Position numbers and translations under genes: made by a program. From Candidatus Staskawiczbacteria bacterium (GTDB lineage: Bacteria > Patescibacteriota > Minisyncoccia > Minisyncoccales > Staskawiczbacteraceae), in the NCBI GenBank assembly GCA_041659225.1, contig JBAZYR010000001.1:98087-162086 (forward strand): a stretch of DNA of 64,000 nt. The letters run 5' to 3'. The notes below the pieces were generated by a model that was not told where the DNA came from, searched no databases, and saw nothing but the letters and a program-made list of their open reading frames with translations. Below are positions 5,005 through 35,207 of this stretch, piece after piece (within the stretch, counting starts at the first letter, position 1; each line of letters begins with the position of its first letter).

Positions 5005-5077
5005 GGGCCTGTAGCTCAGCGGTTAGAGCACTACTCTTATAAAGTAGGGGTCGATGGTTCGATCCCATCCAGGCCCA
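5005..5077 (+). tRNA. tRNA-Ile (anticodon UAU)
   Basis: Hand-folded cloverleaf: acceptor gggcctg/caggccc, anticodon stem ctact/agtag, loop cttataa, T-loop ttcgatc. No encoded CCA. Confidence 0.8.
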
Positions 5078-5085
5078 TTGGGTTA

Positions 5086-5159
5086 GGGCGATTAGCTCAC
5101 TTGGTTAGAGCGCATGCATGACACGCATGAGGTAAGAGGTTCGAATCCTCTATCGCCCA
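5086..5159 (+). tRNA. tRNA-Val (anticodon GAC)
   Basis: Acceptor gggcgat/atcgccc, anticodon stem catgc/gcatg, loop atgacac, T-arm agagg-ttcgaat-cctct. Confidence 0.85.
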
Positions 5160-6358: not shown

Positions 6359-6440
6359 GCGCGGGTGGCGAAATTGGCAAACGCACTACCTTGAGGTGGT
6401 AGCGCCGCAAGGCTTGGAGGTTCGAGTCCTCTCCCGCGCA
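6359..6440 (+). tRNA. tRNA-Leu (anticodon GAG)
   Basis: Acceptor gcgcggg/cccgcgc, anticodon loop ttgaggt, long variable arm, T-loop ttcgagt. Confidence 0.85.
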
Positions 6441-6449
6441 CTAGTCGAA

Positions 6450-6522
6450 GGGCACTTGGCGCAGTGGCTAGCGCGGCTGCTTTACACGCAGTAGGTCGGG
6501 GGTTCGAATCCCTCAGTGCCCA
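6450..6522 (+). tRNA. tRNA-Val (anticodon UAC)
   Basis: Acceptor gggcact/agtgccc, anticodon loop tttacac, T-loop ttcgaat. Confidence 0.85.
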
Positions 6523-6571
6523 CTAGTTGTTGGTTATTAGAAAATACCTTAAACTAAATAATAGCCATTCA

Positions 6572-6644
6572 GCCGTGGTAGCTCAGGTAGCAGAGCGCTT
6601 CTCTGAAAAAGAAGAGGTGGTCGGCGCACATCCGACCCACGGCA
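6572..6644 (+). tRNA. tRNA-Phe (anticodon GAA) with non-canonical T-loop
   Basis: Acceptor gccgtgg/ccacggc, D-arm gctc-aggtagca-gagc, anticodon stem cttct/agaag, loop ctgaaaa. The T-arm is gtcgg-cgcacat-ccgac, where the loop cgcacat replaces TTCRANY. Confidence 0.65.
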
Positions 6645-6650
6645 CATAAT

Positions 6651-6725
6651 GCGGGAGTAGTTCAGCAGTAGAATGCTTCCTTGCCAAGGAAGAGATCGCG
6701 GGTGCGAATCCCGTCTCCCGCTCCA
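6651..6725 (+). tRNA. tRNA-Gly (anticodon GCC), CCA encoded
   Basis: Acceptor gcgggag/ctcccgc, anticodon loop ttgccaa, T-loop tgcgaat (G at position 55), 3' tcca. Confidence 0.8.
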
Positions 6726-8153: not shown

Positions 8154-8239
8154 TGGTGCCCGGGGTGGGAGTCGAACCCACAAGACCTTACGGCCAAGGG
8201 ATTTTAAGTCCCTCGTGTATCCCATTCCACCACCCGGGC
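8154..8239 (-). tRNA. tRNA-Leu (anticodon UAA), CCA encoded
   Basis: The minus strand reads gcccggg...aggga-cttaaaa-tccct, then a long variable arm, gtggg-ttcgact-cccac, cccgggc, acca. Confidence 0.85.
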
Positions 8240-8250
8240 GAAATCGTCTG

Positions 8251-8323
8251 AGGCCGCGGCCGGAATTGCACCGGCGTATACTTCTTTTGCAGAGAAGCGC
8301 CTTAGCTACTTGGCTACGCGGCC
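8251..8323 (-). tRNA. tRNA-Cys (anticodon GCA)
   Basis: Acceptor ggccgcg/cgcggcc, anticodon loop ctgcaaa, discriminator U, T-loop tgcaatt (G at position 55). Confidence 0.8.
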
Positions 8324-18980: not shown

Positions 18981-19053
18981 GGTGGGCGAGGAGATTCGAA
19001 CTCCCCCTAGAAACTCCACAGGTTTCTGTGCTATCCACTACACTACGCCCACC
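18981..19053 (-). tRNA. tRNA-His (anticodon GUG) with encoded G-1
   Basis: Extra 5' G, then gtgggcg/cgcccac, anticodon stem gaaac/gtttc, loop ctgtgga, discriminator C. Confidence 0.8.
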
Positions 19054-19077
19054 ATGAAATAAATAACTTTCCTCTTG

Positions 19078-19149
19078 TGCCCTCAGGAGGAATCGAACCT
19101 CCATTTCAAGTTTAGAAAACTCGTGTTCTATCCGTTGAACTATAAGGGC
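19078..19149 (-). tRNA. tRNA-Arg (anticodon UCU)
   Basis: Acceptor gccctta/tgagggc, anticodon loop tttctaa, T-arm ggagg-ttcgatt-cctcc. Confidence 0.8.
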
Positions 19150-19902: not shown

Positions 19903-19973
19903 CGGGGTATTGTGTAACGGTAGCACGAATGCTTTGGGAGCATTTAGTTCCAGTTCGAATCTGGATACCCCGA
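19903..19973 (+). tRNA. tRNA-Pro (anticodon UGG)
   Basis: Acceptor cggggta/taccccg, anticodon stem aatgc/gcatt, loop tttggga, T-loop ttcgaat. Confidence 0.85.
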
Positions 19974-19975
19974 AT

Positions 19976-20049
19976 GCGGGTATCGCATAGTGGCCGTGCA
20001 CCGGCTTTCCAAGCCGATTACAGGGGTTCGATTCCCCTTACCCGCTCCA
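19976..20049 (+). tRNA. tRNA-Gly (anticodon UCC), CCA encoded
   Basis: Acceptor gcgggta/tacccgc, anticodon loop tttccaa, T-arm agggg-ttcgatt-cccct, 3' tcca. Confidence 0.85.
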
Positions 20050-28220: not shown

Positions 28221-28250
28221 TTGACAAAGTCCAGCTAATTTTGCTATCCT
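28221..28250 (+). promoter_or_regulatory. Promoter of the T-box unit (TTGACA-18 nt-TATCCT)
   Basis: TTGACA at 28221-28226 and TATCCT at 28245-28250. Confidence 0.5.
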
Positions 28251-28256
28251 GTAAAC

Positions 28257-28518
28257 ACCTTAACAATAACCAAAACCAATGAATCGGGTCCCTTAGCGCA
28301 AGCAAAGGGGTTGGGCCCGAGGAGGTGATTTCTGCTTTTAGTGGAGATCCGGATTCCCCCGTAACCATGGGATAATTGATGAATTCGCTTTAAGCGGAGG
28401 AGTCAACGAAGAGCTCAATTGAATCTTCTCAGTTGAGAAACAGGGTGGCACCGCGAGTTTAAGACTTCTCGTCCCTGCAGCATAATTTTAATTATGCTCT
28501 AGAGACGGGAAGTTTTTT
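28257..28518 (+). promoter_or_regulatory. T-box riboswitch leader (tRNA-sensing antiterminator/terminator)
   Basis: 28438-28457 reads AAACAGGGUGGCACCGCGAG, the T-box core. The antiterminator pairs AGGG (28442-45) with CCCU (28473-76) and GCGAG (28453-57) with CUCGU (28468-72, including one G-U pair), leaving the 7-nt bulge UGGCACC. The competing long helix 28465-28512 is followed by UUUUUU (28513-18). AGUGGAGAUCC...CCGUAACC (28340-66) resembles stem I distal elements. Confidence 0.75.
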
Positions 28519-28554
28519 GTTACTTCTAATAGTCCTTTGACAAGGAGAGTCGAT

Positions 28555-28854
28555 ATGCAGCAGACCGATCAAGTTAGCAATCCATTTTCAATCGGCGCAT
28601 TATTGCCAGGCAACACAATCCGCCTTTTTCCCTCAATTGCACGCCAGATTCAACGCCAGCATCGAATGGAAGCAGGAACAGTGACAGACGTCCTGTGCCC
28701 GTTTTGCCAGAAAGGGCATTTGAAGGTAGAAGGAAAGGTTCCATCTACTGACAGTCCTCCAGGATGGGGGGCAAACGCCAAAAAAGAGACGGAATGCCGT
28801 CTCACATGCTCCGAAGATGGATGCAAAGGAAAATTCTTTTTTATCGAAGAGTAA
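28555..28854 (+). CDS. Small (99 aa) putative zinc-ribbon protein, function unknown
   Basis: AAGGAG RBS 7 nt upstream of ATG 28555. Cys pairs CPFC and CRLTCSEDGC. Bracketed by the T-box leader and its own terminator. Confidence 0.6.
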   Translation: MQQTDQVSNPFSIGALLPGNTIRLFPSIARQIQRQHRMEAGTVTDVLCPFCQKGHLKVEGKVPSTDSPPGWGANAKKETECRLTCSEDGCKGKFFFIEE

Positions 28855-28869
28855 TATGCTGCAAATCTC

Positions 28870-28891
28870 AAGCCACTACGGTGGCTTTTTA
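28870..28891 (+). terminator. Rho-independent terminator of the mini-protein gene
   Basis: agccac-tacg-gtggct followed by tttt. It overlaps the stop of the convergent gene. Confidence 0.65.
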
Positions 28892-29974
28892 CTTATTAAT
28901 TACTTTGACTATACCTTTGTAAGCATCTACTTCAACTACGTCTCCATCTTTTATAACTCTCGTCGCCCTTTCAGTTTGTATAACGCAAGGTATATTTAAT
29001 TCTCGGCTTACTACCGCAGCGTGGGAAAGCATACCTCCTTGATCAGCTACAATAGCCGATGCTTTCTTGCAAAGAATCATTATGTCAGGACTTGTGGTCT
29101 CGGCTACCAGAATATCTCCTTTCTTCATCCTTCTGTTTATCTCTGCAATCAGCTTATAGTCATTGAGCATCGGTGCTATCACAGCCCTGCCTTGAGTTTT
29201 TCCCGGATTAGCTACAACTCCTTTGAGTACGCGTGACTGGCTGATAGAGTTAAATTTCCGATCAAATTTTAATGCCTCTTTGAGGCTGAACGTTATTGTC
29301 TTTCCATCTATACTGGCTGCTGCATAGCATTTTCCCCTACCTTTAATTATCTCAGGATCGACTATTTTTCCGCTGAACACATCCAATAGCTCATCCAGAT
29401 ACAGATATTTAGCTTTATAGTCCGTGAGAAAATCCCGGGAAATTGAAGTAAGAACATTTTGTGTGACGCCGTTTTTAAAGAAAAATGCATTCAGCACTTC
29501 TCTGGCCTTGAATTTGAAGGTACTTATTTCTTTTAATCTCTGCATCATTTTCTTGTCTCCATGAGCATTCGCCCATTCAAACGCTAGATCAAGATATGCG
29601 TATTCTACCATGCCGTAATAATACCAAAATTTCCCTAAGAACTTAGCAAGATCAGAGAATTCCTTTTTTGTCATCTTCTTAGGAACTACGGAGTATTTGG
29701 GTATGACTATAGTGTTAGCTTTTTTTACATGGGCTTTAAAATCTCTGTAGTACCTATCGTAAAGCTTCTTATTTTTATACAGTCTCAACCCGTACTGAAG
29801 GCAGATTTTCTCTTTTTTCCGGTTGATAAAAGTATTATATACGCCATCTTTGTATATCAAGAAAATATCCGCACGGTTCATCGATCCATTCAGTAAAAAA
29901 CTGCTATGTAGGCATGAAACAAAGGTGTTGGCGGTGAAGAACTTCTTAAAGTCTTTTGAATTGATGCTTACCAT
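28889..29974 (-). CDS. PEP-utilising-enzyme mobile (phosphohistidine swivel) domain protein, paralog A; no ATP-grasp or TIM-barrel domain
   Basis: C-terminal approx. 90 aa read GKTQGRAVI...GDILVAETTSPDIMILCKKASAIVADQGGMLSHAAVVSRELNIPCVIQT...DGDVVEVDAYKGIV, a PF00391-type pattern with the phospho-His. The N-terminal approx. 260 aa are unassigned. Confidence 0.7.
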   Translation of the reverse strand: MVSINSKDFKKFFTANTFVSCLHSSFLLNGSMNRADIFLIYKDGVYNTFINRKKEKICLQYGLRLYKNKKLYDRYYRDFKAHVKKANTIVIPKYSVVPKKMTKKEFSDLAKFLGKFWYYYGMVEYAYLDLAFEWANAHGDKKMMQRLKEISTFKFKAREVLNAFFFKNGVTQNVLTSISRDFLTDYKAKYLYLDELLDVFSGKIVDPEIIKGRGKCYAAASIDGKTITFSLKEALKFDRKFNSISQSRVLKGVVANPGKTQGRAVIAPMLNDYKLIAEINRRMKKGDILVAETTSPDIMILCKKASAIVADQGGMLSHAAVVSRELNIPCVIQTERATRVIKDGDVVEVDAYKGIVKVINK

Positions 29975-30012
29975 ATCCCTATTCTAATAGACGGGGAATA
30001 CTTTCGCAACTA

Positions 30013-30040
30013 TTGACATATATTATATATATGGTATAAT
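30013..30040 (+). promoter_or_regulatory. Near-consensus promoter (TTGACA-16 nt-TGgTATAAT) for the phosphatase gene
   Basis: TTGACA at 30013-30018, TG at 30032-33, TATAAT at 30035-30040. Confidence 0.65.
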
Positions 30041-30098
30041 CAATACAGTTGCTTCACAATCCGTTTGGGTGTGTCCTATACTACGAAAGGAGATTGTC

Positions 30099-30533
30099 GT
30101 GATCAAATCGATTCTGTCCTGCTGCAAGGGTAATACCTGCAGAAGTCCGATGCTTGAGGCGTTTCTCAAGGCATTGCTCCCAGAAGAGGTGGCGGTCGAA
30201 AGCGCTGGAACCTATGAAGGCTGCGATCCCGCTGTCTTGACGAACAGCCCCTCCGTCAACGCAATGCGCGAAGGTTACGGCCTTGACATCTCGGGCCACC
30301 GAAGCCGGTGGGTCAACGATGTCAACCTTGACCGGTTCGATCTCGTGGTCTGTATGTCGCGGGCCGAGGCGAGCTATATCATAGCTCAGAACTTCCCAGG
30401 CCTGGTCATGGTCGCGAATGCAAAGAACGGCGGCGTGCCGAACCCGTGGAAAATGGGGCCTGAGGTTTACGCTGAGTGCGCGAAAGTACTCGAGTCCGTC
30501 GCCCATGAAGTGGTCGAACTCTGGTTCGACTGA
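30099..30533 (+). CDS. Low-molecular-weight protein-tyrosine-phosphatase / ArsC-like fold protein, high-GC
   Basis: GTG start with AAAGGAG 5 nt upstream. P-loop CCKGNTCRSPM fits the C-X5-R-S/T signature. Line 30241-30300 counts 38/60 G+C. Confidence 0.75.
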   Translation: MIKSILSCCKGNTCRSPMLEAFLKALLPEEVAVESAGTYEGCDPAVLTNSPSVNAMREGYGLDISGHRSRWVNDVNLDRFDLVVCMSRAEASYIIAQNFPGLVMVANAKNGGVPNPWKMGPEVYAECAKVLESVAHEVVELWFD

Positions 30534-30556
30534 TCCAATCGGCCACACCACCCACA

Positions 30557-30594
30557 GAAAAAAAGCCCGCGGAGGAAATCTTCCCGGGCTTTTC
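30557..30594. terminator. Bidirectional terminator between the phosphatase gene and swivel-domain paralog B
   Basis: aaaaaaaagcccg...cgggcttttc: a GC stem flanked by an A-run and a T-run. Confidence 0.6.
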
Positions 30595-30607
30595 ACATAT
30601 ATAAAGA

Positions 30608-32008
30608 TTAAATCTTCTTAACTATACCACTATATGCATCCACCTCAACCAAGTCTCCGTCTTTTAGAACTCTGGTTGCATAGTGTGTCCCCACTACACA
30701 AGGAATGTGGAGTTCTCTCGAAATGATAGCTGCATGAGACAGCATCCCTCCTTCATCTGTAATTATAGCTGCGGCTTTGCTGGCTATATCCATGACATTA
30801 GGCTGCGTCATCTGTGTTACAAGAATTTCACCCTTTTGAAACGTTTTCCTAACCAGCCTTGTGTTCTCAACATCGTTAGCACGTAGGACACGCACGACAC
30901 CAGTACTTTTTCCGGGATTCGCAGGCGTTCCTCGCAAAATCTTTGTGTCCGCCTCTTTATACAACGGCCCTAATTCTCTTTTTGCCACTTGCTCCGCTTT
31001 TATCCCGGAATAGTGGAAAAACTTCTTATTTTTAAGATGACCGGCAAAACATCGTTTCCTGTCTGATTTTTCTTTCGCGGACAATAGCTCACCTTTGTTA
31101 ACAGCTTTTTTTAAATCCTCCAAGAGATAAAGTTTCCATAGATCGTTGACACGCTCGTGAGTCCGCTTAGATATTTCTTGATAAAACGGGATTAAATAAA
31201 AATCGCTACCTGCCCAGCAGGATTTTATGGCGATTCTGGTGACAGCGATTCTTTGTGCTAAATTGACAAGTGATTTGGCCTCCGGATGTTTAGATATTAT
31301 TACTTCCTGTTTCTTTCTGAGAACCGCCTTTTCCTCTGCAATATTCTTCGGGGTAAGATTCAATTTATCGTAGGCATACCTTTGCTTTAATGTTTCTAAA
31401 ACCTCTCCATAAGAATAATGGTTCATAACAATCCATGGATATCTCGCCGCGTGATTGATGATGATCTTCTCAGAAAACGAATTCTTTACAATTTTTTGCC
31501 AAGCTAAAAGCTCTAAATTCATATCATCAACTTCTGTCGGCAACATCAAAAGCGAGGCGTTTCTTGGAACAAAATATTTTTTGATCTCCTCCGTGAGATA
31601 GTGAGTGCCCGCTGCCTGACTATATCGAAAGTAGCTAATAATATATGACCACTCATCAATTATTTTTTCTAACCAAGCGATGATTTCTTTGTTGGATAGA
31701 TTGCTGACATTTAGATCCCTGATTTCTTTAAACATTTGCCAATGCCGGGCATAATCGCGGCCCAGCGTTCTTAGAAATTTATTAATGAACTTTTTGTCAA
31801 AAAGCAATTTACCTCTTTCGGTATCTCTCTCAATATCCTTTTCCGAATGAAAACAGCGGATATCGTTATCCGCTGATACCTGAATAATTTCAGAGACATC
31901 GTTCCAGGGAGTAACGTCCCGGAACTTAATAAAAGAGTTTATGTTCGCTTCTATGAATATATTCGGTTCGTGATTACTCCAAAGAAAACGAAATTTTGTT
32001 CTTGGCAT
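30608..32008 (-). CDS. PEP-utilising-enzyme mobile (phosphohistidine swivel) domain protein, paralog B
   Basis: The C-terminus reads GKSTGVVRVL...GEILVTQMTQPNVMDIASKAAAIITDEGGMLSHAAIISRELHIPCVVGT...DGDLVEVDAYSGIV. The helical region before it resembles the linker region of PEP-synthase-like enzymes. No ATP-grasp motif was seen. Confidence 0.7.
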   Translation of the reverse strand: MPRTKFRFLWSNHEPNIFIEANINSFIKFRDVTPWNDVSEIIQVSADNDIRCFHSEKDIERDTERGKLLFDKKFINKFLRTLGRDYARHWQMFKEIRDLNVSNLSNKEIIAWLEKIIDEWSYIISYFRYSQAAGTHYLTEEIKKYFVPRNASLLMLPTEVDDMNLELLAWQKIVKNSFSEKIIINHAARYPWIVMNHYSYGEVLETLKQRYAYDKLNLTPKNIAEEKAVLRKKQEVIISKHPEAKSLVNLAQRIAVTRIAIKSCWAGSDFYLIPFYQEISKRTHERVNDLWKLYLLEDLKKAVNKGELLSAKEKSDRKRCFAGHLKNKKFFHYSGIKAEQVAKRELGPLYKEADTKILRGTPANPGKSTGVVRVLRANDVENTRLVRKTFQKGEILVTQMTQPNVMDIASKAAAIITDEGGMLSHAAIISRELHIPCVVGTHYATRVLKDGDLVEVDAYSGIVKKI

Positions 32009-32019
32009 TGTTTTTATTC

Positions 32020-33891
32020 TTAAAACCCAGTCTTTTTCGTTTCAGTTCTTTTTTTATTACTCTCCTTTTCTTCTTCATCTTCTTCTTCCTCCTCTGCGTC
32101 TACCTCCGCATCCTTCAAAAATCCACCAGCCTGTAGGGACCAGAGATTTTTGTATAAGCTATTTTCTTTGTTTAACAGTTCGCTGTGGCTTCCTTGTTCT
32201 ATAATCATCCCGTCATCAATAACAATAATCCTGTCCATTTTTTGTATCGTAGACAAACGATGGGCGATAACAATCGTAGTGCAACCGGACATTAAATTAT
32301 TCAATGCGTCCTGGATTAACATCTCAGAATGAGAGTCTAAACTAGACGTTGCTTCGTCCAATACTAATATCGGCGCGTTCTTAAGTATTGCCCTGGCAAT
32401 CGCCACTCGCTGACGTTCTCCTCCCGATAGCTTAACCCCCCTTTCCCCGACATATGTGTTGAGGCCTTCGGGTAAATCTTTGATGAACTCATTACAATGA
32501 GAAAGTTCTGCTGCTTTTTGTATTTCCTCTTCCGATGCACCGCGCTTCCCGTATCCGATGTTCTCGGCTAGTGTTCTATGAAATAGTATCGTATCCTGCG
32601 GAACTACAGAAATATTCCTCCTCAGGCTTTCTTGCGTCGCACAGCGTATATCCTGCCCATCAATTAAAACCTTACCGGCAGTTGGAGAATACAAGCGTAA
32701 TAGTAATCTCACGAACGTTGTCTTGCCTGCGCCCGATGGACCAACAAGTGCTACTTTTTCCCCTGGCTTTATAACTAAATCTATATCTTCCAACACCTTT
32801 CTAGTTTGATTGAAGCTGAAACTAAGATCTTTAAATTCAATCTGTCCGTTCGTTACTAAGAGTTCTTTCGCGGAGGGAGAATCTTTAATTTCGTGAGGCA
32901 ACAGCATAATTTCAACCATTTCTTTCGCATCGGCATATGCTTGGTATACGCTTCTCACAACGCGGGTAAAACCCCACAACTGATCAATCAAGCCGATTAT
33001 ATATACCTGCAATAAGACGAAGACGCCAACTGTCAATAAACCCTGGTTCCAGTATTTAATGGCGAAGTAAAAAAGTAAAAACTGTATTGCAAATCCTAAA
33101 AATGCCTGTCCGGCTTCCATTATAGAATCTAGGTTCCAACTCGTCTTTGTCGCTTTCGCCTGCTCATCCGTTACTGCCTTGTATCCCTTAGATTCGAAGG
33201 CCTTTCCGCCGAATAGTTGGATTGTATTTTGATTGGTTATCGTGTCAGAAAGATACCCAGTGGTTTTGGAATCAATTTCTGCAACCAAAATATCGTATTT
33301 TATCTTCCATTTGGAAAATATGATGTTGAATAGTAAAAATAATATTATCCAGACAAAAATAAGCAGAGCGATCCATTTGTTTATAAAAGCCACGACGACA
33401 ATCACAGAAACGATTCTCACAAGCAGAGACAACACATCCCAAATTAAACGGTCGGCCAATGTTTCAAACGATCGAGCAAAACGATTGACCCGCTGCACAA
33501 GGGAGCCGGTAAAATTATTTGTGAAAAAACTATAAGAATGCTCTATCAAATAATCATATGCCTGCTGTTTTAAACGCGCGATAGTGCCGGTTTGGTATGA
33601 ATTATTACAAAGAGTGGCTATACGGTAAAACAGCCAGATAAAACCATTCAAAATCGCTATTTCAATTATTATCGTCAACAGTCGAGAAGCAATTGCTGAT
33701 TTATCCCCGTCAACCGAAACAACGTCAAAAAATTGCTTATACAAAATTGGTGTAACAATTGCTACAATGCTGGCTAACACGATAAAAACTATAAGAAAAA
33801 ACAACGTCCATTTTTGGGGCCTTATTCCCTTCCAAAAAGTGGAAAGGATATCACTGACCCCTACTTTTGGATAATTAATATTTTTTGGCAT
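32020..33891 (-). CDS. ABC exporter, fused permease/ATPase (MsbA/type-1 exporter-like) with acidic tail
   Basis: Six-TM N-terminal half. Walker A GPSGAGKTT, signature LSGGERQR, Walker B ILVLDEATS. The C-terminus reads DAEEEEEDEEE. Confidence 0.9.
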   Translation of the reverse strand: MPKNINYPKVGVSDILSTFWKGIRPQKWTLFFLIVFIVLASIVAIVTPILYKQFFDVVSVDGDKSAIASRLLTIIIEIAILNGFIWLFYRIATLCNNSYQTGTIARLKQQAYDYLIEHSYSFFTNNFTGSLVQRVNRFARSFETLADRLIWDVLSLLVRIVSVIVVVAFINKWIALLIFVWIILFLLFNIIFSKWKIKYDILVAEIDSKTTGYLSDTITNQNTIQLFGGKAFESKGYKAVTDEQAKATKTSWNLDSIMEAGQAFLGFAIQFLLFYFAIKYWNQGLLTVGVFVLLQVYIIGLIDQLWGFTRVVRSVYQAYADAKEMVEIMLLPHEIKDSPSAKELLVTNGQIEFKDLSFSFNQTRKVLEDIDLVIKPGEKVALVGPSGAGKTTFVRLLLRLYSPTAGKVLIDGQDIRCATQESLRRNISVVPQDTILFHRTLAENIGYGKRGASEEEIQKAAELSHCNEFIKDLPEGLNTYVGERGVKLSGGERQRVAIARAILKNAPILVLDEATSSLDSHSEMLIQDALNNLMSGCTTIVIAHRLSTIQKMDRIIVIDDGMIIEQGSHSELLNKENSLYKNLWSLQAGGFLKDAEVDAEEEEEDEEEKESNKKRTETKKTGF

Positions 33892-34492
33892 AAATTAGCG
33901 AAGGAATTTGTTTGATCAGATTATCAACCAAATCGAGTGTTTCTGTTTTTGTAAATTCTAAATTGTTGCGATCCAAAATTCTAACATGCTCATGCTTGCC
34001 CTCTAATTTCCTGCACTCCTGCCCGATTCTCTGGGCTCTTTGTTGTATGAAATCTGACTGCTCACTGATTCTCCCCCGTCTTGTAATGTTTTCCTGAATC
34101 TTCTGCCCGGGTGCCGTGAGCACTATAACTTTATCAGCTCTCAGATGTGAGTTTGCTTTAATCCATTTCCGTAAAATCGGTGGCGATTGTTTCCCGATTT
34201 CGGCATTGAGCCATGCTTCTAAAAGCAGGATATCGCCATCTACATAGCTTGTGATACCAATACCAGCGATGGCATGCGCTCGTTCTAACATTAATCTAGT
34301 ACGTTCAGCCAACCAATCATATCGTTGAGGAGTATCTATCTTATTATTTAAAACACTTAAAATAGTAGAAGTAAAAATACCCTCTTCTCCCTCTAAAAAA
34401 CTGGGGTTACAGTTACGACAGGCCATTTGTCGAGTAAGGAATGAAGTGCCCACACCAGGTGCACCTATAAAAGCGACTACTTCACCTTTCAT
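33875..34492 (-). CDS. P-loop NTPase-like protein (nucleoside/nucleotide-kinase-like) with degenerate Walker A
   Basis: N-terminal GAPGVGTSF has Thr where the canonical Walker A Lys sits. Start set at ATG 34492 because the ORF-track extension crosses tRNA-Ala. The 3' end overlaps the ABC gene start by 17 nt. Confidence 0.45.
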   Translation of the reverse strand: MKGEVVAFIGAPGVGTSFLTRQMACRNCNPSFLEGEEGIFTSTILSVLNNKIDTPQRYDWLAERTRLMLERAHAIAGIGITSYVDGDILLLEAWLNAEIGKQSPPILRKWIKANSHLRADKVIVLTAPGQKIQENITRRGRISEQSDFIQQRAQRIGQECRKLEGKHEHVRILDRNNLEFTKTETLDLVDNLIKQIPSLIYAKKY

Positions 34493-34540
34493 AATATTAT
34501 TTAAGATCACAACTAAAACCTCGACTTGATAAATCAAATG

Positions 34541-34611
34541 TGGACCTGGGGAGAATCGAACTCCCGTCTCCGCAATGCGAATGCGGCGTATTGCCACTAT
34601 ACTACGGGCCC
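34541..34611 (-). tRNA. tRNA-Ala (anticodon CGC)
   Basis: Acceptor gggcccg/caggtcc with G3:U70, anticodon stem ccgca/tgcgg, loop ttcgcat, T-arm gggag-ttcgatt-ctccc. Confidence 0.8.
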
Positions 34612-34775
34612 TAACTATGACAAATAGTACCATTTTTTATTCCGAAAAGAAAGATTCCTCTATTATATACCACACCTTGACAGACCCCCTCAGTTTGCTA
34701 TAATACTCTTACACTTCAAAAGCTGAAACAATGTATATTTTTCATTCACATATACCAATACATTTAAGCTTAAAA

Positions 34776-35207
34776 ATGTTTAGAAATAAAATAATAGTTT
34801 TAACTATTCTAGCCCTAGTTTTTGCTAACTTTTATTGCGTTGGCGCTGCGGCTGCCTCGACCACATTCCACCAAGAAATGGATGAGGGTGTTATTGAGTT
34901 GCTATCTGGTATGGATTCGGGTATAGCCGATAAACAATGCGTGCCGAGTCAAGAAAACGGTCAAAAACCAACGGAGAATAAACAACATGGTAATGGATAT
35001 TCCCTGTGCTGCAAAGACAATAGCCCTTATCGAATTGGAACAATAAGCAAGACCGAAACCAGTAACGACAAAACTGTTTTTTCTACTGCTGCAATCATTC
35101 CCGACTCCCAGTCCATCCGTGGCTATTTCTCCGCTTACCTATATCAAATATCTTTTCTACCACCGCCCGAGGCCTCTAGTTTGCGTTCTGTAGTAAAGAT
35201 CGAGTAA
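34776..35207 (+). CDS. Secreted hypothetical protein upstream of the copper cluster
   Basis: Signal-like N-terminus MFRNKIIVLTILALVFANFYCVGAAAA, plus Cys, His and Met residues. Start chosen at the second ATG. Confidence 0.4.
   Translation: MFRNKIIVLTILALVFANFYCVGAAAASTTFHQEMDEGVIELLSGMDSGIADKQCVPSQENGQKPTENKQHGNGYSLCCKDNSPYRIGTISKTETSNDKTVFSTAAIIPDSQSIRGYFSAYLYQISFLPPPEASSLRSVVKIE

Follow-up and report, generated by a model that had tools for sequence, protein, structure and literature searches.

Two probable H-type subunits of split Rph-like dikinases beside an LMW-PTP-fold gene in Candidatus Staskawiczbacteria

The closest described systems to the locus studied here are the proven two-component homologues of Rph: HpeHI of Rhodococcus, CreHI of Corynebacterium, and PpsAB, the phenylphosphate synthase of Thauera and Aromatoleum (PMC12167813). 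Their H subunit combines a RIF-BD-like domain with a C-terminal swivel whose histidine lies in a GG...H loop, their I subunit is a separate ATP-grasp protein of about 310-340 aa, and a phosphatase step is tied to the pathway (PMC12167813). The mechanism of Rph and its Arg666/Glu667/Lys670 site have been described for Rph-Lm (5FBS, 5FBT, 5FBU, and 5HV1; PMC4844700), in which a substrate domain is likewise followed by a C-terminal swivel.

We analysed a stretch of 64,000 nucleotides (64 kb, "the window") from a Candidatus Staskawiczbacteria bacterium. Two of its genes, here called A and B, have the same division of domains as the H subunits:

28889..29974, minus strand: gene A, an ORF of 361 aa
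28892-29230, minus strand: swivel phosphohistidine domain of A, aa 249-361 (PF00391 at 284-354)
29021..29023, minus strand: codon of A His318, the predicted phosphoryl carrier (invariant, n=62 homologues)
29231-29974, minus strand: shorter N-domain of A, aa 1-248 (AF2 model)
29498..29515, minus strand: conserved basic/acidic cluster of A, Lys154 and Arg158-Glu159 (R158 invariant, K154 nearly so)
30608..32008, minus strand: gene B, an ORF of 466 aa
30611-30943, minus strand: swivel phosphohistidine domain of B, aa 356-466 (PF00391 at 390-461)
30734..30736, minus strand: codon of B His425 (GGMLSH), the predicted phosphoryl carrier (invariant, n=67 homologues)
30944-32008, minus strand: predicted RIF-BD-like substrate-binding domain of B, aa 1-355 (AF2 model and Foldseek)
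31223..31237, minus strand: basic pair Arg258-Lys262 (R-x3-K) in the N-domain of B (invariant columns in the family)

An initial annotation had described two minus-strand swivel genes flanking a phosphatase-fold gene, and the ORFs together with PF00391 and PF01451 confirm this arrangement. The phospho-His motifs of the two proteins, ADQGGMLSHAAVVSREL and TDEGGMLSHAAIISREL, both contain GGMLSHAA, and the C-terminal PF00391 (87 bits) is the sole Pfam match in each protein. Neither A nor B matched PF01326 (ATP-grasp) or PF02896 (TIM barrel) in the Pfam search, as had been proposed. The annotation's statement that the N-termini are mutually divergent was also upheld. BLASTP aligned A and B at 42% identity across 175 aa, and profile-profile comparison paired A173-361 with B274-466 and nothing more. 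Since both alignments cover the C-terminus only, the paralogy appears to be confined to that region, with the N-terminal ~170 aa of A and ~270 aa of B diverged in sequence; no Pfam domain was found in either N-terminal region.

The label "swivel-domain-only" did not survive structure prediction, because the N-terminal regions of both proteins are predicted to fold as Rph-type substrate-binding domains. For the AF2 model of B (pLDDT 96, pTM 0.92), the best Foldseek matches were the Rph-Lm structures 5fbu, 5fbt, and 5hv1 (E 1e-13), with TMq of 0.54-0.60, where swivel-only matches gave about 0.2. Sequence profiles of B did not reach Rph beyond the swivel, so that the link for its N-domain comes from the predicted structure, which identifies the N-terminal ~350 aa as homologous to the rifampin-binding domain of Rph. 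The model of A (pLDDT 94) also had Rph-Lm as its best match (E 1.6e-11, 270-285 columns), with TMq of 0.34-0.40, modestly over the 0.25-0.28 of swivel-only matches. The A-family profile pairs with Rph-Lm 679-866 (E 1.5e-25), reaching about 90 residues past the swivel, and positions 647-863 of the NCBIfam Rph model align with A137-358. Taken with the model, these matches identify A from residue ~140-165 onward as homologous to the same domain; the residues before that point had no match to Rph by any method used. Each protein has more than 100 full-length homologues, those of B occurring in CPR and DPANN.

B Arg258 and Lys262 stand 16 residues ahead of the block common to A and Rph, and are candidate counterparts of Rph-Lm Arg666 and Lys670. 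The A cluster sits 7-11 residues ahead of the start of the profile alignment at Rph 679, and Lys154, Arg158, and Glu159 may correspond to Arg666-Glu667-Lys670; in both proteins the register is inferred by position alone. His425 of B aligns with the catalytic histidine of PEP synthases and Rph.

We consider it likely that A and B are two distinct H-type subunits of split Rph-like small-molecule dikinases, with the ATP-grasp supplied in trans and the phosphatase-fold protein as a linked accessory. They are read as substrate-binding and phosphohistidine subunits because their N-terminal regions are homologous, on the evidence above, to the rifampin-binding domain. A separate PPDK_N ATP-grasp protein, encoded outside the window, would bind ATP; the swivel histidine (A His318 or B His425) would attack the beta-phosphate, and the gamma-phosphate would leave as Pi. 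The swivel would then go back to its own N-domain, where the conserved basic residues (R258 and K262 of B, K154 and R158 of A) would line the site at which a hydroxyl of the small molecule bound there takes up the phosphate. A single ATP-grasp may serve several subunits of this kind, every subunit having an acceptor of its own. The proposed order, ATP to histidine to acceptor, is that of the dikinases PpsA and PPDK.

This reading changes two parts of the earlier proposal. The acceptor part, which had been thought unknown or located elsewhere, would lie inside each protein, because the N-terminal regions are RIF-BD-like substrate-binding domains. The module had also been called uncharacterised, and its kind is already published as the H/A subunit of HpeHI, CreHI, and PpsAB (PMC12167813). 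Compared by published description, A and B differ from those subunits in their much smaller N-domains (~250 and ~355 aa), in belonging to CPR and DPANN rather than to aromatic-degrading Actinobacteria and Proteobacteria, and in having no adjacent ATP-grasp in the window. From Rph-Lm they differ in lacking an ATP-grasp in the chain and in their smaller substrate domain, and nothing points to rifamycins; they score 67 and 53 bits against the NCBIfam Rph model, for which the cut-off is 999. Sequence-detectable similarity to Rph is limited to the swivel and the last ~90 residues ahead of it.

The A and B swivels are nearer to those of PEP synthases (PpsA; mainly the archaeal multimeric enzymes, 8A8E and 9DAE) and PPDK, at 47-53% identity, than to that of Rph-Lm (32%), which counts against an Rph reading. 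Unlike PpsA and PPDK, the two proteins have neither the PEP/pyruvate TIM barrel nor an ATP-grasp, and they have Leu two residues before the histidine in place of the regulatory Thr of GGxT(S/C)H (PMC12167813).

Tblastn and a six-frame HMM search, which covered the 64-kb window out of a source contig with ~720 kb more, found no encoded ATP-grasp. A kinase part supplied in trans, as the annotation suggested, is supported by A and B being phosphohistidine carriers with no ATP-grasp or TIM barrel of their own. Relatives supply an identity for this part, which was given there as unknown: a PPDK_N ATP-grasp. P0025 and P0035 are fusions of the order B-SW-PPDK_N (PF01326, E 2.5e-104), and L013 (817 aa, PPDK_N-B-SW) shows the complete Rph architecture built around a B-type domain. 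In L003 (PPDK_N-A-SW-SW-SW, 1410 aa) an A-type module directly follows PPDK_N. L032, L085, and L041 join PPDK_N to 4-8 modules, the biggest fusions having 3768 aa and 8 modules. Stand-alone PPDK_N genes (~315 aa) occur inside the arrays L004, L017, L019, L024, L031, L033, L039, L042, L083, L087, and L090, and belong to a very large conserved CPR/DPANN family with 60-78% identity.

These relatives form tandem arrays in CPR bacteria and DPANN archaea, with up to 12 ATP-grasp-less modules per one ATP-grasp, and the A/B pair of the window is a small instance of them. In our survey, swivel ORFs without an ATP-grasp numbered 244, and PPDK_N genes numbered 16 stand-alone and 22 fused; exactly one PPDK_N was present within ±10 kb in 18 of 39 arrays, and two in none. 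At BLAST E<=1e-3 a single superfamily takes in almost all of the N-domains (198 of 214), and at E<=1e-30 it separates into 109 clusters, several to an array. The shape of the split is already known from the 1:1 pairs HpeHI, CreHI, and PpsAB, whereas we found no description in the searched literature of CPR/DPANN arrays in which one ATP-grasp accompanies many paralogous H-type genes or multi-module fusions.

The gene between A and B is read from the opposite strand:

30099..30533, plus strand: LMW-PTP-fold gene, 144 aa from GTG 30099 (PF01451, 58 bits against a cut-off of 23)
30013..30040, plus strand: promoter-like site of this gene, TTGACA-16-TATAAT with extended -10 TG (12/12; consensus match alone)

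The longest ORF begins at 30069, and an AAAGGAG RBS precedes GTG 30099, which is probably the true start. The promoter-like site lies in the 124-bp divergent spacer between the ATG of A (29974) and this GTG. The P-loop, CKGNTCRS, is intact (Cys9-X5-Arg15-Ser), in agreement with the PTP fold and C-X5-R motif reported initially. The name "phosphatase" needs caution, since Asn115 (30441-30443) replaces the general acid/base Asp of the D-loop; GVPNPW aligns with DVEDPY and EIPDPY in the alignment to 4egs and Wzb. The protein should therefore be a slow hydrolase. The Asn variant occurs in 44 of 148 representative homologues, is enriched among the closest, and is found in six of eight array-linked copies; two linked copies keep Asp. 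By its residues, the protein of the window belongs to a sizeable subfamily in which Cys and Arg are retained and Asn stands in place of the general-acid Asp.

The neighbourhood of the two gene types is kept in relatives. In five of nine close B-orthologue loci (the window, L004, L006, L090, and L093), an LMW-PTP-like gene is at most two genes away from the B-type gene, and such a gene is also present in L036, L018, and L012; in L090 the genes PTP, B, PPDK_N, and HAD are contiguous and run in the same direction. Most arrays have no PTP. Because this adjacency is conserved, and because Foldseek found an Rph-type substrate domain rather than a full PPDK_N in the N-termini, the suggestion of a phosphotransfer module stands. 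The LMW-PTP-fold protein would be an accessory with a functional link to the B(-A) unit; most likely it would bind, trap, or slowly take off a phosphoryl group, either that of the product or that of the phospho-His carrier.

Among described LMW-PTP proteins (the arginine phosphatase YwlE, Wzb, and LMW-PTP-type ArsC), the fold and the C-X5-R-S P-loop are shared. Thr13 matches YwlE, in which Thr at P-loop position 5 is critical for specificity for phosphoarginine, a P-N bond (PMC7772506). The protein differs from the family in the Asn of VPNPW, from ArsC in the absence, by sequence, of the redox Cys pair, and from both in its genomic partner, a dikinase carrier subunit rather than a Wzc-type tyrosine kinase or McsB. 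The PTS, in which phosphate passes from the swivel His of Enzyme I to the His of HPr or EIIA and then to the Cys of EIIB, shares the PEP-utiliser swivel phosphohistidine domain with A and B, and offers an earlier example of phosphate passing from His to Cys on a small alpha/beta protein. The EIIB of the cellobiose/lactose family has a fold resembling LMW-PTPs. By this analogy a His-to-Cys transfer onto the PTP-fold protein could be imagined, a purely hypothetical step. The 64-kb window contains no HPr, EIIA, or EIIC and no TIM barrel of Enzyme I, and the phosphodonor would be ATP, via the ATP-grasp, rather than PEP.

Two more specific forms of the split-dikinase reading concern the substrate. 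The enzymes might trap or activate a host nutrient or surface precursor (a sugar, glycan, phenolic, or nucleoside), with phosphohydrolases acting later; we regard this as possible but doubtful. HpeHI has a sub-micromolar Km, has been called a scavenging system, and is followed by dephosphorylation in its pathway (PMC12167813). Genes for HAD, HD, His_Phos_1, NUDIX, and LMW-PTP proteins adjoin or are fused with the modules, although the HD and His_Phos_1 calls are mostly under Pfam thresholds. In L092 an A-type gene lies among Wzx-like flippase, GT4, and Wzy genes. CPR and DPANN organisms take metabolites from hosts, and this dependence would suit scavenging. Against it, the neighbours of the arrays are heterogeneous, with no one pathway recurring, and each phosphorylation by a dikinase uses up two phosphoanhydride bonds, a high cost for energy-poor organisms.

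Inactivation of xenobiotics or antibiotics, with toxins phosphorylated and then removed by an exporter, seems rather unlikely. It draws on an antibiotic kinase being the nearest solved fold, on the extreme diversification of the N-domains, which fits an arms race, on the 'rph-like' genes counted in CPR resistomes (PMC8651080), and on the exporter gene just upstream of B, listed here with its neighbour:

32020..33891, minus strand: ABC exporter, 623 aa, with transmembrane domain and ATPase (PF00664, PF00005)
33875..34498, minus strand: AAA_28-like P-loop protein, ~207 aa (PF13521, 26 bits, just below the cut-off of 27)

The exporter gene, which has the orientation of B and stops 11 bp ahead of the B start codon, probably shares a transcript with B; we take it as context rather than as an established part of the module. 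Comparable exporters adjoin swivel genes in four other loci, two of them CPR arrays, but few arrays have such a neighbour. HpeHI, CreHI, and PpsAB serve catabolism or scavenging rather than resistance, the nearest relative of A is placed in a polysaccharide-synthesis cluster, and it is not obvious what the accompanying phosphohydrolases would do in detoxification.

A and B could instead be ATP-independent transphosphorylases, with the swivel histidine shuttling phosphoryl groups between small molecules or from a phosphorylated metabolite, and the PTP as sink or gate. We find this improbable. HpeH alone moves phosphate from 4-phosphoacetophenone to acetovanillone (PMC12167813), phosphohydrolases of various folds recur beside arrays, and the lack of an ATP-grasp in the window is repeated within ±10 kb of L001 and L006. 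However, both A- and B-type modules are repeatedly fused with PPDK_N, and most well-sampled arrays have exactly one. Few proteins of these lineages are as conserved as stand-alone PPDK_N, which argues that it is an obligatory partner. It is very improbable that the swivels are vestigial and carry no phosphate, as in the PEP-utiliser-like domain at the C-terminus of certain pyruvate kinases: such a domain (2e28) is among the sequence matches at 42-47% identity, and the L093-linked PTP has lost its Cys, which shows catalytic erosion in the neighbourhood, but the histidine and the whole GG..SHAA..SRE are invariant in more than 60 divergent homologues per family, as are basic residues of the N-domain, and fusion to an intact ATP-grasp is frequent.

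The remaining neighbours are taken as context. The P-loop gene overlaps the start of the ABC gene and opens a co-oriented string of P-loop, ABC, and B; a longer P-loop ORF (to 34633) overlaps the tRNA at 34541-34611. On the other side of the module is one further feature:

28270-28479, plus strand: T-box-like leader (59.5 bits, E 9e-12, full model spanned; under the Rfam gathering score of 93)

This leader adjoins the module, as had been noted, but is not upstream of it in a regulatory sense. It lies past the 3' end of A, facing a 105-aa ORF, and since it is on the other strand and points away, it is unconnected to the module.

The two minus-strand genes, here called A and B, lie on either side of a plus-strand gene of the LMW-PTP fold (PTP), and a T-box-like leader is located nearby:

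28270-28479, + strand, T-box-like leader (Rfam RF00230, E-value mode, full-length match)
28889-29974, - strand, gene A, ORF of 361 aa
30013-30040, + strand, promoter-like site of PTP (12 of 12 sigma-70 consensus positions, extended -10 TG)
30069-30533, + strand, PTP, longest ORF (PF01451), with a probable GTG start at 30099
30608-32008, - strand, gene B, ORF of 466 aa

Pfam finds a single domain in each protein, the swivel phosphohistidine domain PF00391 (87 bits in each), which lies at the very C-terminal end, and the search matched neither the PPDK_N ATP-grasp domain (PF01326) nor the PEP/pyruvate TIM barrel (PF02896) in A or B. The initial annotation had described the two ORFs in just these terms, and the description is accurate, since both the Pfam content and the alignment of A with B agree with it; the paralogy of the two proteins is C-terminal only. 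An identity of 42% extends over the last 175 residues and no further, and in a profile-profile comparison only B274-466 and A173-361 aligned, with no alignment of the N-termini beyond the last 195 columns. The swivel domains of A and B are 55% identical to each other, 47-53% identical to those of archaeal PEP synthases and 32% identical to that of the Listeria rifampin phosphotransferase (Rph-Lm). A GG...H loop holds the conserved histidine in both proteins (phospho-His contexts ADQGGMLSHAAVVSREL in A and TDEGGMLSHAAIISREL in B), and this residue is invariant in 62 homologues of A (H318) and 67 homologues of B (H425). The Thr of the T-x-x-G-G-x-x-x-H motif is present in B (T417) and is Ala in A. 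Unlike PEP synthase, which has a regulatory Thr two residues before the His, both A and B have Leu at that position.

The N-terminal regions had been taken for orphan sequence, a view that can no longer be held. Each protein belongs to a full-length family (approximately 465-470 aa for B and 360 aa for A) with more than 100 listed members, found in Patescibacteria and in DPANN archaea such as the Woesearchaeota, Nanoarchaeota and Micrarchaeota. B itself is identical to the database protein P0001, of a Candidatus Staskawiczbacteria contig of 785 kb. AlphaFold2 models made with the family alignments are very confident (pLDDT 96 and pTM 0.92 for B; pLDDT 94 and pTM 0.88 for A), and the best solved-structure match for both in Foldseek was Rph-Lm. 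That enzyme is made up of an ATP-grasp domain (residues 1-314), a rifampin-binding domain (RIF-BD, 327-754) and a swivel (767-865) (PMC4844700). The B model matched it with an E value of 1e-13 and a TMq of 0.54-0.60 over about 570 columns, and it matched PPDK, Enzyme I and pyruvate kinase with a TMq of only about 0.2, through the swivel alone. Sequence profiles gave no link between the B N-domain and Rph, only the swivel being aligned. As modeled, the N-terminal domain of B is a homologue of the RIF-BD and would bind substrate.

For A, the Foldseek match to Rph-Lm covered 270-285 columns (E 1.6e-11) with a TMq of only 0.34-0.40. The A-family profile aligns to Rph-Lm 679-866 (E 1.5e-25), a match that extends some 90 residues past the swivel on its N-terminal side, and A137-358 is covered by the NCBIfam Rph model from Rph position 647 (A ~140/165-248 corresponding to Rph 647/679-766). 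Residues 1 to ~140 of A matched no known domain or structure in the sequence and structure searches. In the models, A starts with a strand, a helix, a hairpin and helices, the same order of secondary structure as at the start of B. A cryptic ATP-grasp in the N-termini can be dismissed, as the PPDK_N (PF01326) HMM gave nothing significant on A or B and the models are mainly helical and RIF-BD-like; the structure search that had been proposed for these regions led to Rph-Lm, across the N-domain in B and over part of it in A.

Rph-Lm carries phosphate on His825, and its phosphotransfer site includes Arg666, Glu667 and Lys670 (PMC4844700). The pair R258-x3-K262 is invariant across the B family; in the A family R158, with E159 next to it, is invariant and K154 nearly so. 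In both proteins these basic residues shortly precede the block whose alignment starts at Rph 679, and R258/K262 of B and K154/R158 of A are plausible candidate counterparts of the Rph-Lm site in an inferred register. When 214 single-module N-domains were clustered, 198 joined one superfamily that includes B (BLAST E<=1e-3) and that yields 109 clusters when the threshold is E<=1e-30; the A-type N-domain formed a separate small family. The A and B families define compact predicted substrate domains of the Rph type for which there is no Pfam model, and they offer a structure-guided route to the substrates.

The architecture predicted for A and B fits that of the H-type subunit of two-component Rph-like dikinases. 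In HpeHI, CreHI and PpsAB (phenylphosphate synthase), a RIF-BD-like domain and the swivel occur in one subunit and the ATP-grasp in the other, and both subunits are required for ATP-dependent phosphorylation of phenolic substrates (PMC12167813). Mutation of the swivel His destroys the activity of the two-component Rph homologue, and HpeH alone moves phosphate between substrates (PMC12167813). Like HpeH, CreH and PpsA of these systems, A and B have no ATP-grasp in their own chain, in which they differ from single-chain Rph (NCBIfam NF041857 / NF000283). For the two proteins the NCBIfam Rph models gave 67 and 53 bits (cut-off 999) and 47 and 40 bits (cut-off 1700). The NCBIfam PpsA model aligned with A and B only over model positions ~347-461 of 798, with 95-109 bits (cut-off 598). 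Because the scores are far below the cut-offs and domains are missing (the ATP-grasp of Rph, and both the N-terminal PF01326 and the C-terminal PF02896 of PEP synthase and PPDK), A and B are neither Rph nor PEP synthase/PPDK, and the labels currently given to genes of these types, "PEP-utilizing enzyme" or "phosphoenolpyruvate synthase", are misleading. As the split Rph-type dikinase is already a known mechanism class, no new type of enzyme is described here. Membership of A, B and PTP in a known anti-phage defense system can be set aside, as PADLOC gave no match.

No PPDK_N was found in the 64-kb window, either by a six-frame HMM search or with the ATP-grasp halves of close fusions as tblastn queries. 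The suggestion that the kinase part is supplied in trans is in keeping with the relatives, in which PPDK_N is fused to the modules or stands alone in arrays of them. In the database protein P0025 (809 aa), which is 50% identical to B along the whole length, and in P0035, the B-domain comes first, then the swivel and then PPDK_N (PF01326 E 2.5e-104), and an 817-aa protein in locus L013 has PPDK_N, B-domain and swivel, which is the order of Rph. A 1410-aa protein in L003 has PPDK_N followed by an A-type domain with its swivel and by two more swivel modules. In larger fusions one PPDK_N precedes five swivel modules (L032, 2029 aa) or four (L085, 1997 aa). A Woesearchaeota MAG (JAFGGS010000004.1) has a single ORF of 3768 aa (L041:464-11767) with an N-terminal PPDK_N followed by eight swivel modules. 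Locus L004 has at least 12 ATP-grasp-less swivel genes in tandem and a stand-alone 315-aa PPDK_N approximately 5 kb downstream, and arrays with one PPDK_N also occur in L017, L019, L024, L031, L033, L039, L042, L083, L087 and L090.

We surveyed 84 independent loci, counting PPDK_N within +-10 kb of the arrays, and found 244 ATP-grasp-less swivel ORFs compared with 16 PPDK_N genes that stand alone and 22 that are fused. Arrays of at least three swivel genes were present in 39 of the 84 loci; exactly one PPDK_N lay within +-10 kb of 18 of these 39 arrays, and two lay near none of them. The stand-alone PPDK_N (~312-315 aa) forms a very large family in CPR and DPANN organisms (over 8000 profile matches) and is highly conserved, at 60-78% identity among the Patescibacteria. 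The simplest reading of the fusions and arrays of the relatives is that one ATP-grasp would serve many substrate-specific carrier subunits. The pair P0020/P0243, from one Woesearchaeota MAG, was considered as an instance of an unlinked ATP-grasp and rejected, the contigs being abutting and the genes adjacent in a better assembly (L090). Arrays of typical CPR/DPANN style in L009, L010, L019, L024, L030 and others belong to assemblies whose titles read "uncultured Gammaproteobacteria", "Methanosarcinales" or "Bdellovibrionales", and these may be placeholders or wrong taxonomy.

The initial annotation had also drawn attention to the phosphatase-fold gene beside the carriers, and this adjacency is conserved in relatives: of the nine loci that have a close orthologue of B, five (the window, L004, L006, L090 and L093) carry an LMW-PTP-like gene within two genes of the B-type one, and L001, L003, L007 and L087 lack it. 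The gene order is PTP-B-A in L006, a divergent PTP followed by B-A in L004, and a convergent PTP beside B in L093 and the window; in L090, PTP, B, PPDK_N and a HAD gene are contiguous and co-directional. Further LMW-PTP-like genes occur directly after the B-A pair in L036 (B-A-PTP), inside the array in L018 and 2.3 kb upstream in L012. Since a 20-kb locus is only about 2% of such a genome, the recurrence of PTP beside B is, by a rough estimate, far above chance. B followed by A is a conserved unit in itself, as the A-type gene comes directly after a 460-498-aa swivel gene in seven of eight loci.

PTP and A point away from each other, and PTP and B towards each other. An AAAGGAG ribosome-binding site precedes the GTG at 30099, from which the protein has 144 aa and begins MIKSILSCCKGNTCRSP. 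It matches PF01451 with 58.1 bits (cut-off 23.2) and aligns with 4egs, Wzb and YwlE. The fold and the C-X5-R-(S/T) P-loop of canonical LMW-PTPs are kept (CKGNTCRS, with Cys9-X5-Arg15-Ser intact), whereas the D-loop Asp (DP[YF]) is missing: Asn115 takes the place of the general acid/base, VPNPW aligning with VEDPY and IPDPY. The specificity of the arginine phosphatase YwlE for the P-N bond comes from a Thr at P-loop position 5 (PMC7772506). PTP shares this Thr (Thr13) with YwlE but lacks the catalytic Asp. An LMW-PTP-type arsenate reductase is rejected, as the ArsC (pI258 family) models scored only 39.5-39.9 bits against cut-offs of 174-215, over the N-terminal half alone, and the array-linked PTP homologues have no second or third conserved Cys that could form the ArsC redox pair.

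Asn is present in six and Asp in two of eight independent array-linked copies of PTP. An exhaustive search gave 148 representative PTP homologues, of which 44 have the Asn variant with Cys and Arg kept, and these make up 14 of the 25 closest to PTP, 16 of the next 50 and 14 of the remaining 73. Retention of Cys and Arg, together with the greater frequency of Asn among the closest relatives, argues for a selected variant and not decay. The PTP-like protein beside the closest long-contig relative of B (L093:2210-2698, - strand) has lost both the Cys (VGQDNTRRSP) and the Asp (DVPNL), and it appears to be a pseudophosphatase that has been kept next to a B-type gene.

The D-loop Asp of LMW-PTPs normally helps both the leaving group to depart and the Cys-phosphate to be hydrolyzed, and turnover by the Asn variant should therefore be slow. 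For this reason we regard PTP as a putative binder, trap or slow phosphatase acting on the product or on the phospho-His carrier; we infer both its role and the substrates. With a conserved Asn-variant LMW-PTP tied genomically to phosphohistidine carriers, His-to-Cys phosphotransfer or phospho-trapping might take the place of hydrolysis. A role as a phosphocysteine relay is a minority possibility, suggested by loss of the Asp that hydrolyzes the thiophosphate, so that phosphate could pass from His~P to Cys~P. Its most elaborate form, which we think improbable, is a branched CPR/DPANN phosphorelay in which one ATP-grasp charges diversified carriers and the B(-A)-linked PTP is an EIIB-like phosphocysteine acceptor or relay rather than a phosphatase. 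If this is true, organisms without a PTS would have a new group-transfer system that resembles the PTS and is driven by ATP.

Neither the compact Rph-type families of CPR and DPANN organisms, with their arrays and mega-fusions around a single ATP-grasp, nor the link of the Asn-variant LMW-PTP with the carriers was found in the full-text literature (most subscription journals excepted), and a survey of the CPR resistome merely counts rph-like genes in the Microgenomates (PMC8651080). The scale of the arrays and fusions, the compact substrate domains and the link to the Asn-variant PTP appear to be the new aspects. The CPR/DPANN hosts of the arrays have genomes of approximately 1 Mb and minimal metabolism. 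They spend up to a dozen tandem genes, or proteins of 2000-3800 aa, on diversified substrate modules that apparently all depend on one ATP-grasp. That minimal organisms devote so many genes to substrate modules implies a capacity for small-molecule phosphorylation that is important to the CPR/DPANN lifestyle, in detoxification, scavenging or surface modification.

Several other families recur beside the arrays: HAD hydrolases (six loci), TrmB regulators (five), ABC exporters (five) and hexapeptide transferases (four). RHG-motif proteins also recur, most of them under the Pfam cut-off for His_Phos_1, with a clear match in L093. Two B-type proteins, P0034 and P0054 (668 and 698 aa), have a C-terminal HD domain (22-23 bits against a Pfam cut-off of 22), and this extension occupies the position of the ATP-grasp in other B-type proteins. 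A separate YfbR-like HD gene lies directly upstream of the swivel genes in a woesearchaeal locus (L001:7929-8528), and HAD and NUDIX genes are directly downstream in L007. These HAD, LMW-PTP, HD, NUDIX and His_Phos_1 neighbors and fusions suggest that the arrays are linked, not uniformly, with phosphohydrolases of several folds; the HAD and LMW-PTP assignments are solid, and most other His_Phos_1-like and HD-like calls are under the Pfam thresholds. The closest long-contig relative of A (L092:6641-13733, 57% identity) sits amid a Wzx-like flippase, a GT4 glycosyltransferase and Wzy_C, a polysaccharide-synthesis cluster that hints at a glycan or cell-surface molecule as the acceptor of the A type.

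In the window, an ABC exporter gene, which matched only generic ABC models in PADLOC, ends 11 bp before the start of B, and its own start is overlapped by a P-loop (AAA_28-like) gene. Given the short gap and the overlap, the P-loop, ABC and B genes probably form one transcript. The longest ORF of the P-loop gene (33875-34633, - strand, 252 aa) has a tRNA gene (34541-34611, - strand) overlapping its 5' end; the likely start of the protein is therefore 34498, which gives 207 aa. A second perfect match to the sigma-70 promoter consensus (12 of 12, extended -10 TG) lies at 34677-34704 (+ strand), before an ORF at 34731-35207. The 64-kb window has 17 tRNA genes, with small clusters at 5005-5159, 6359-6722, 8157-8323, 18981-19149 and 19903-20046.

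The T-box had been placed immediately upstream of the module. A T-box-like leader is present beside it, with a canonical AGGGUGGCACCGCGAG box and a match of 59.5 bits (E 9e-12) that is under the gathering score of 93; at the gathering threshold, Rfam gave no T-box match. The upstream regulatory position did not stand, as the leader is on the other strand and precedes the ORF at 28537-28854, not A, B or PTP. Being convergent with gene A, it cannot control the module. The region (28221-28887, + strand) comprises a promoter-like site, the leader, this Cys-rich ORF of 105 aa, which has no Pfam match, and a terminator-like hairpin. A CPR T-box before a small gene that does not encode an aminoacyl-tRNA synthetase is unusual.
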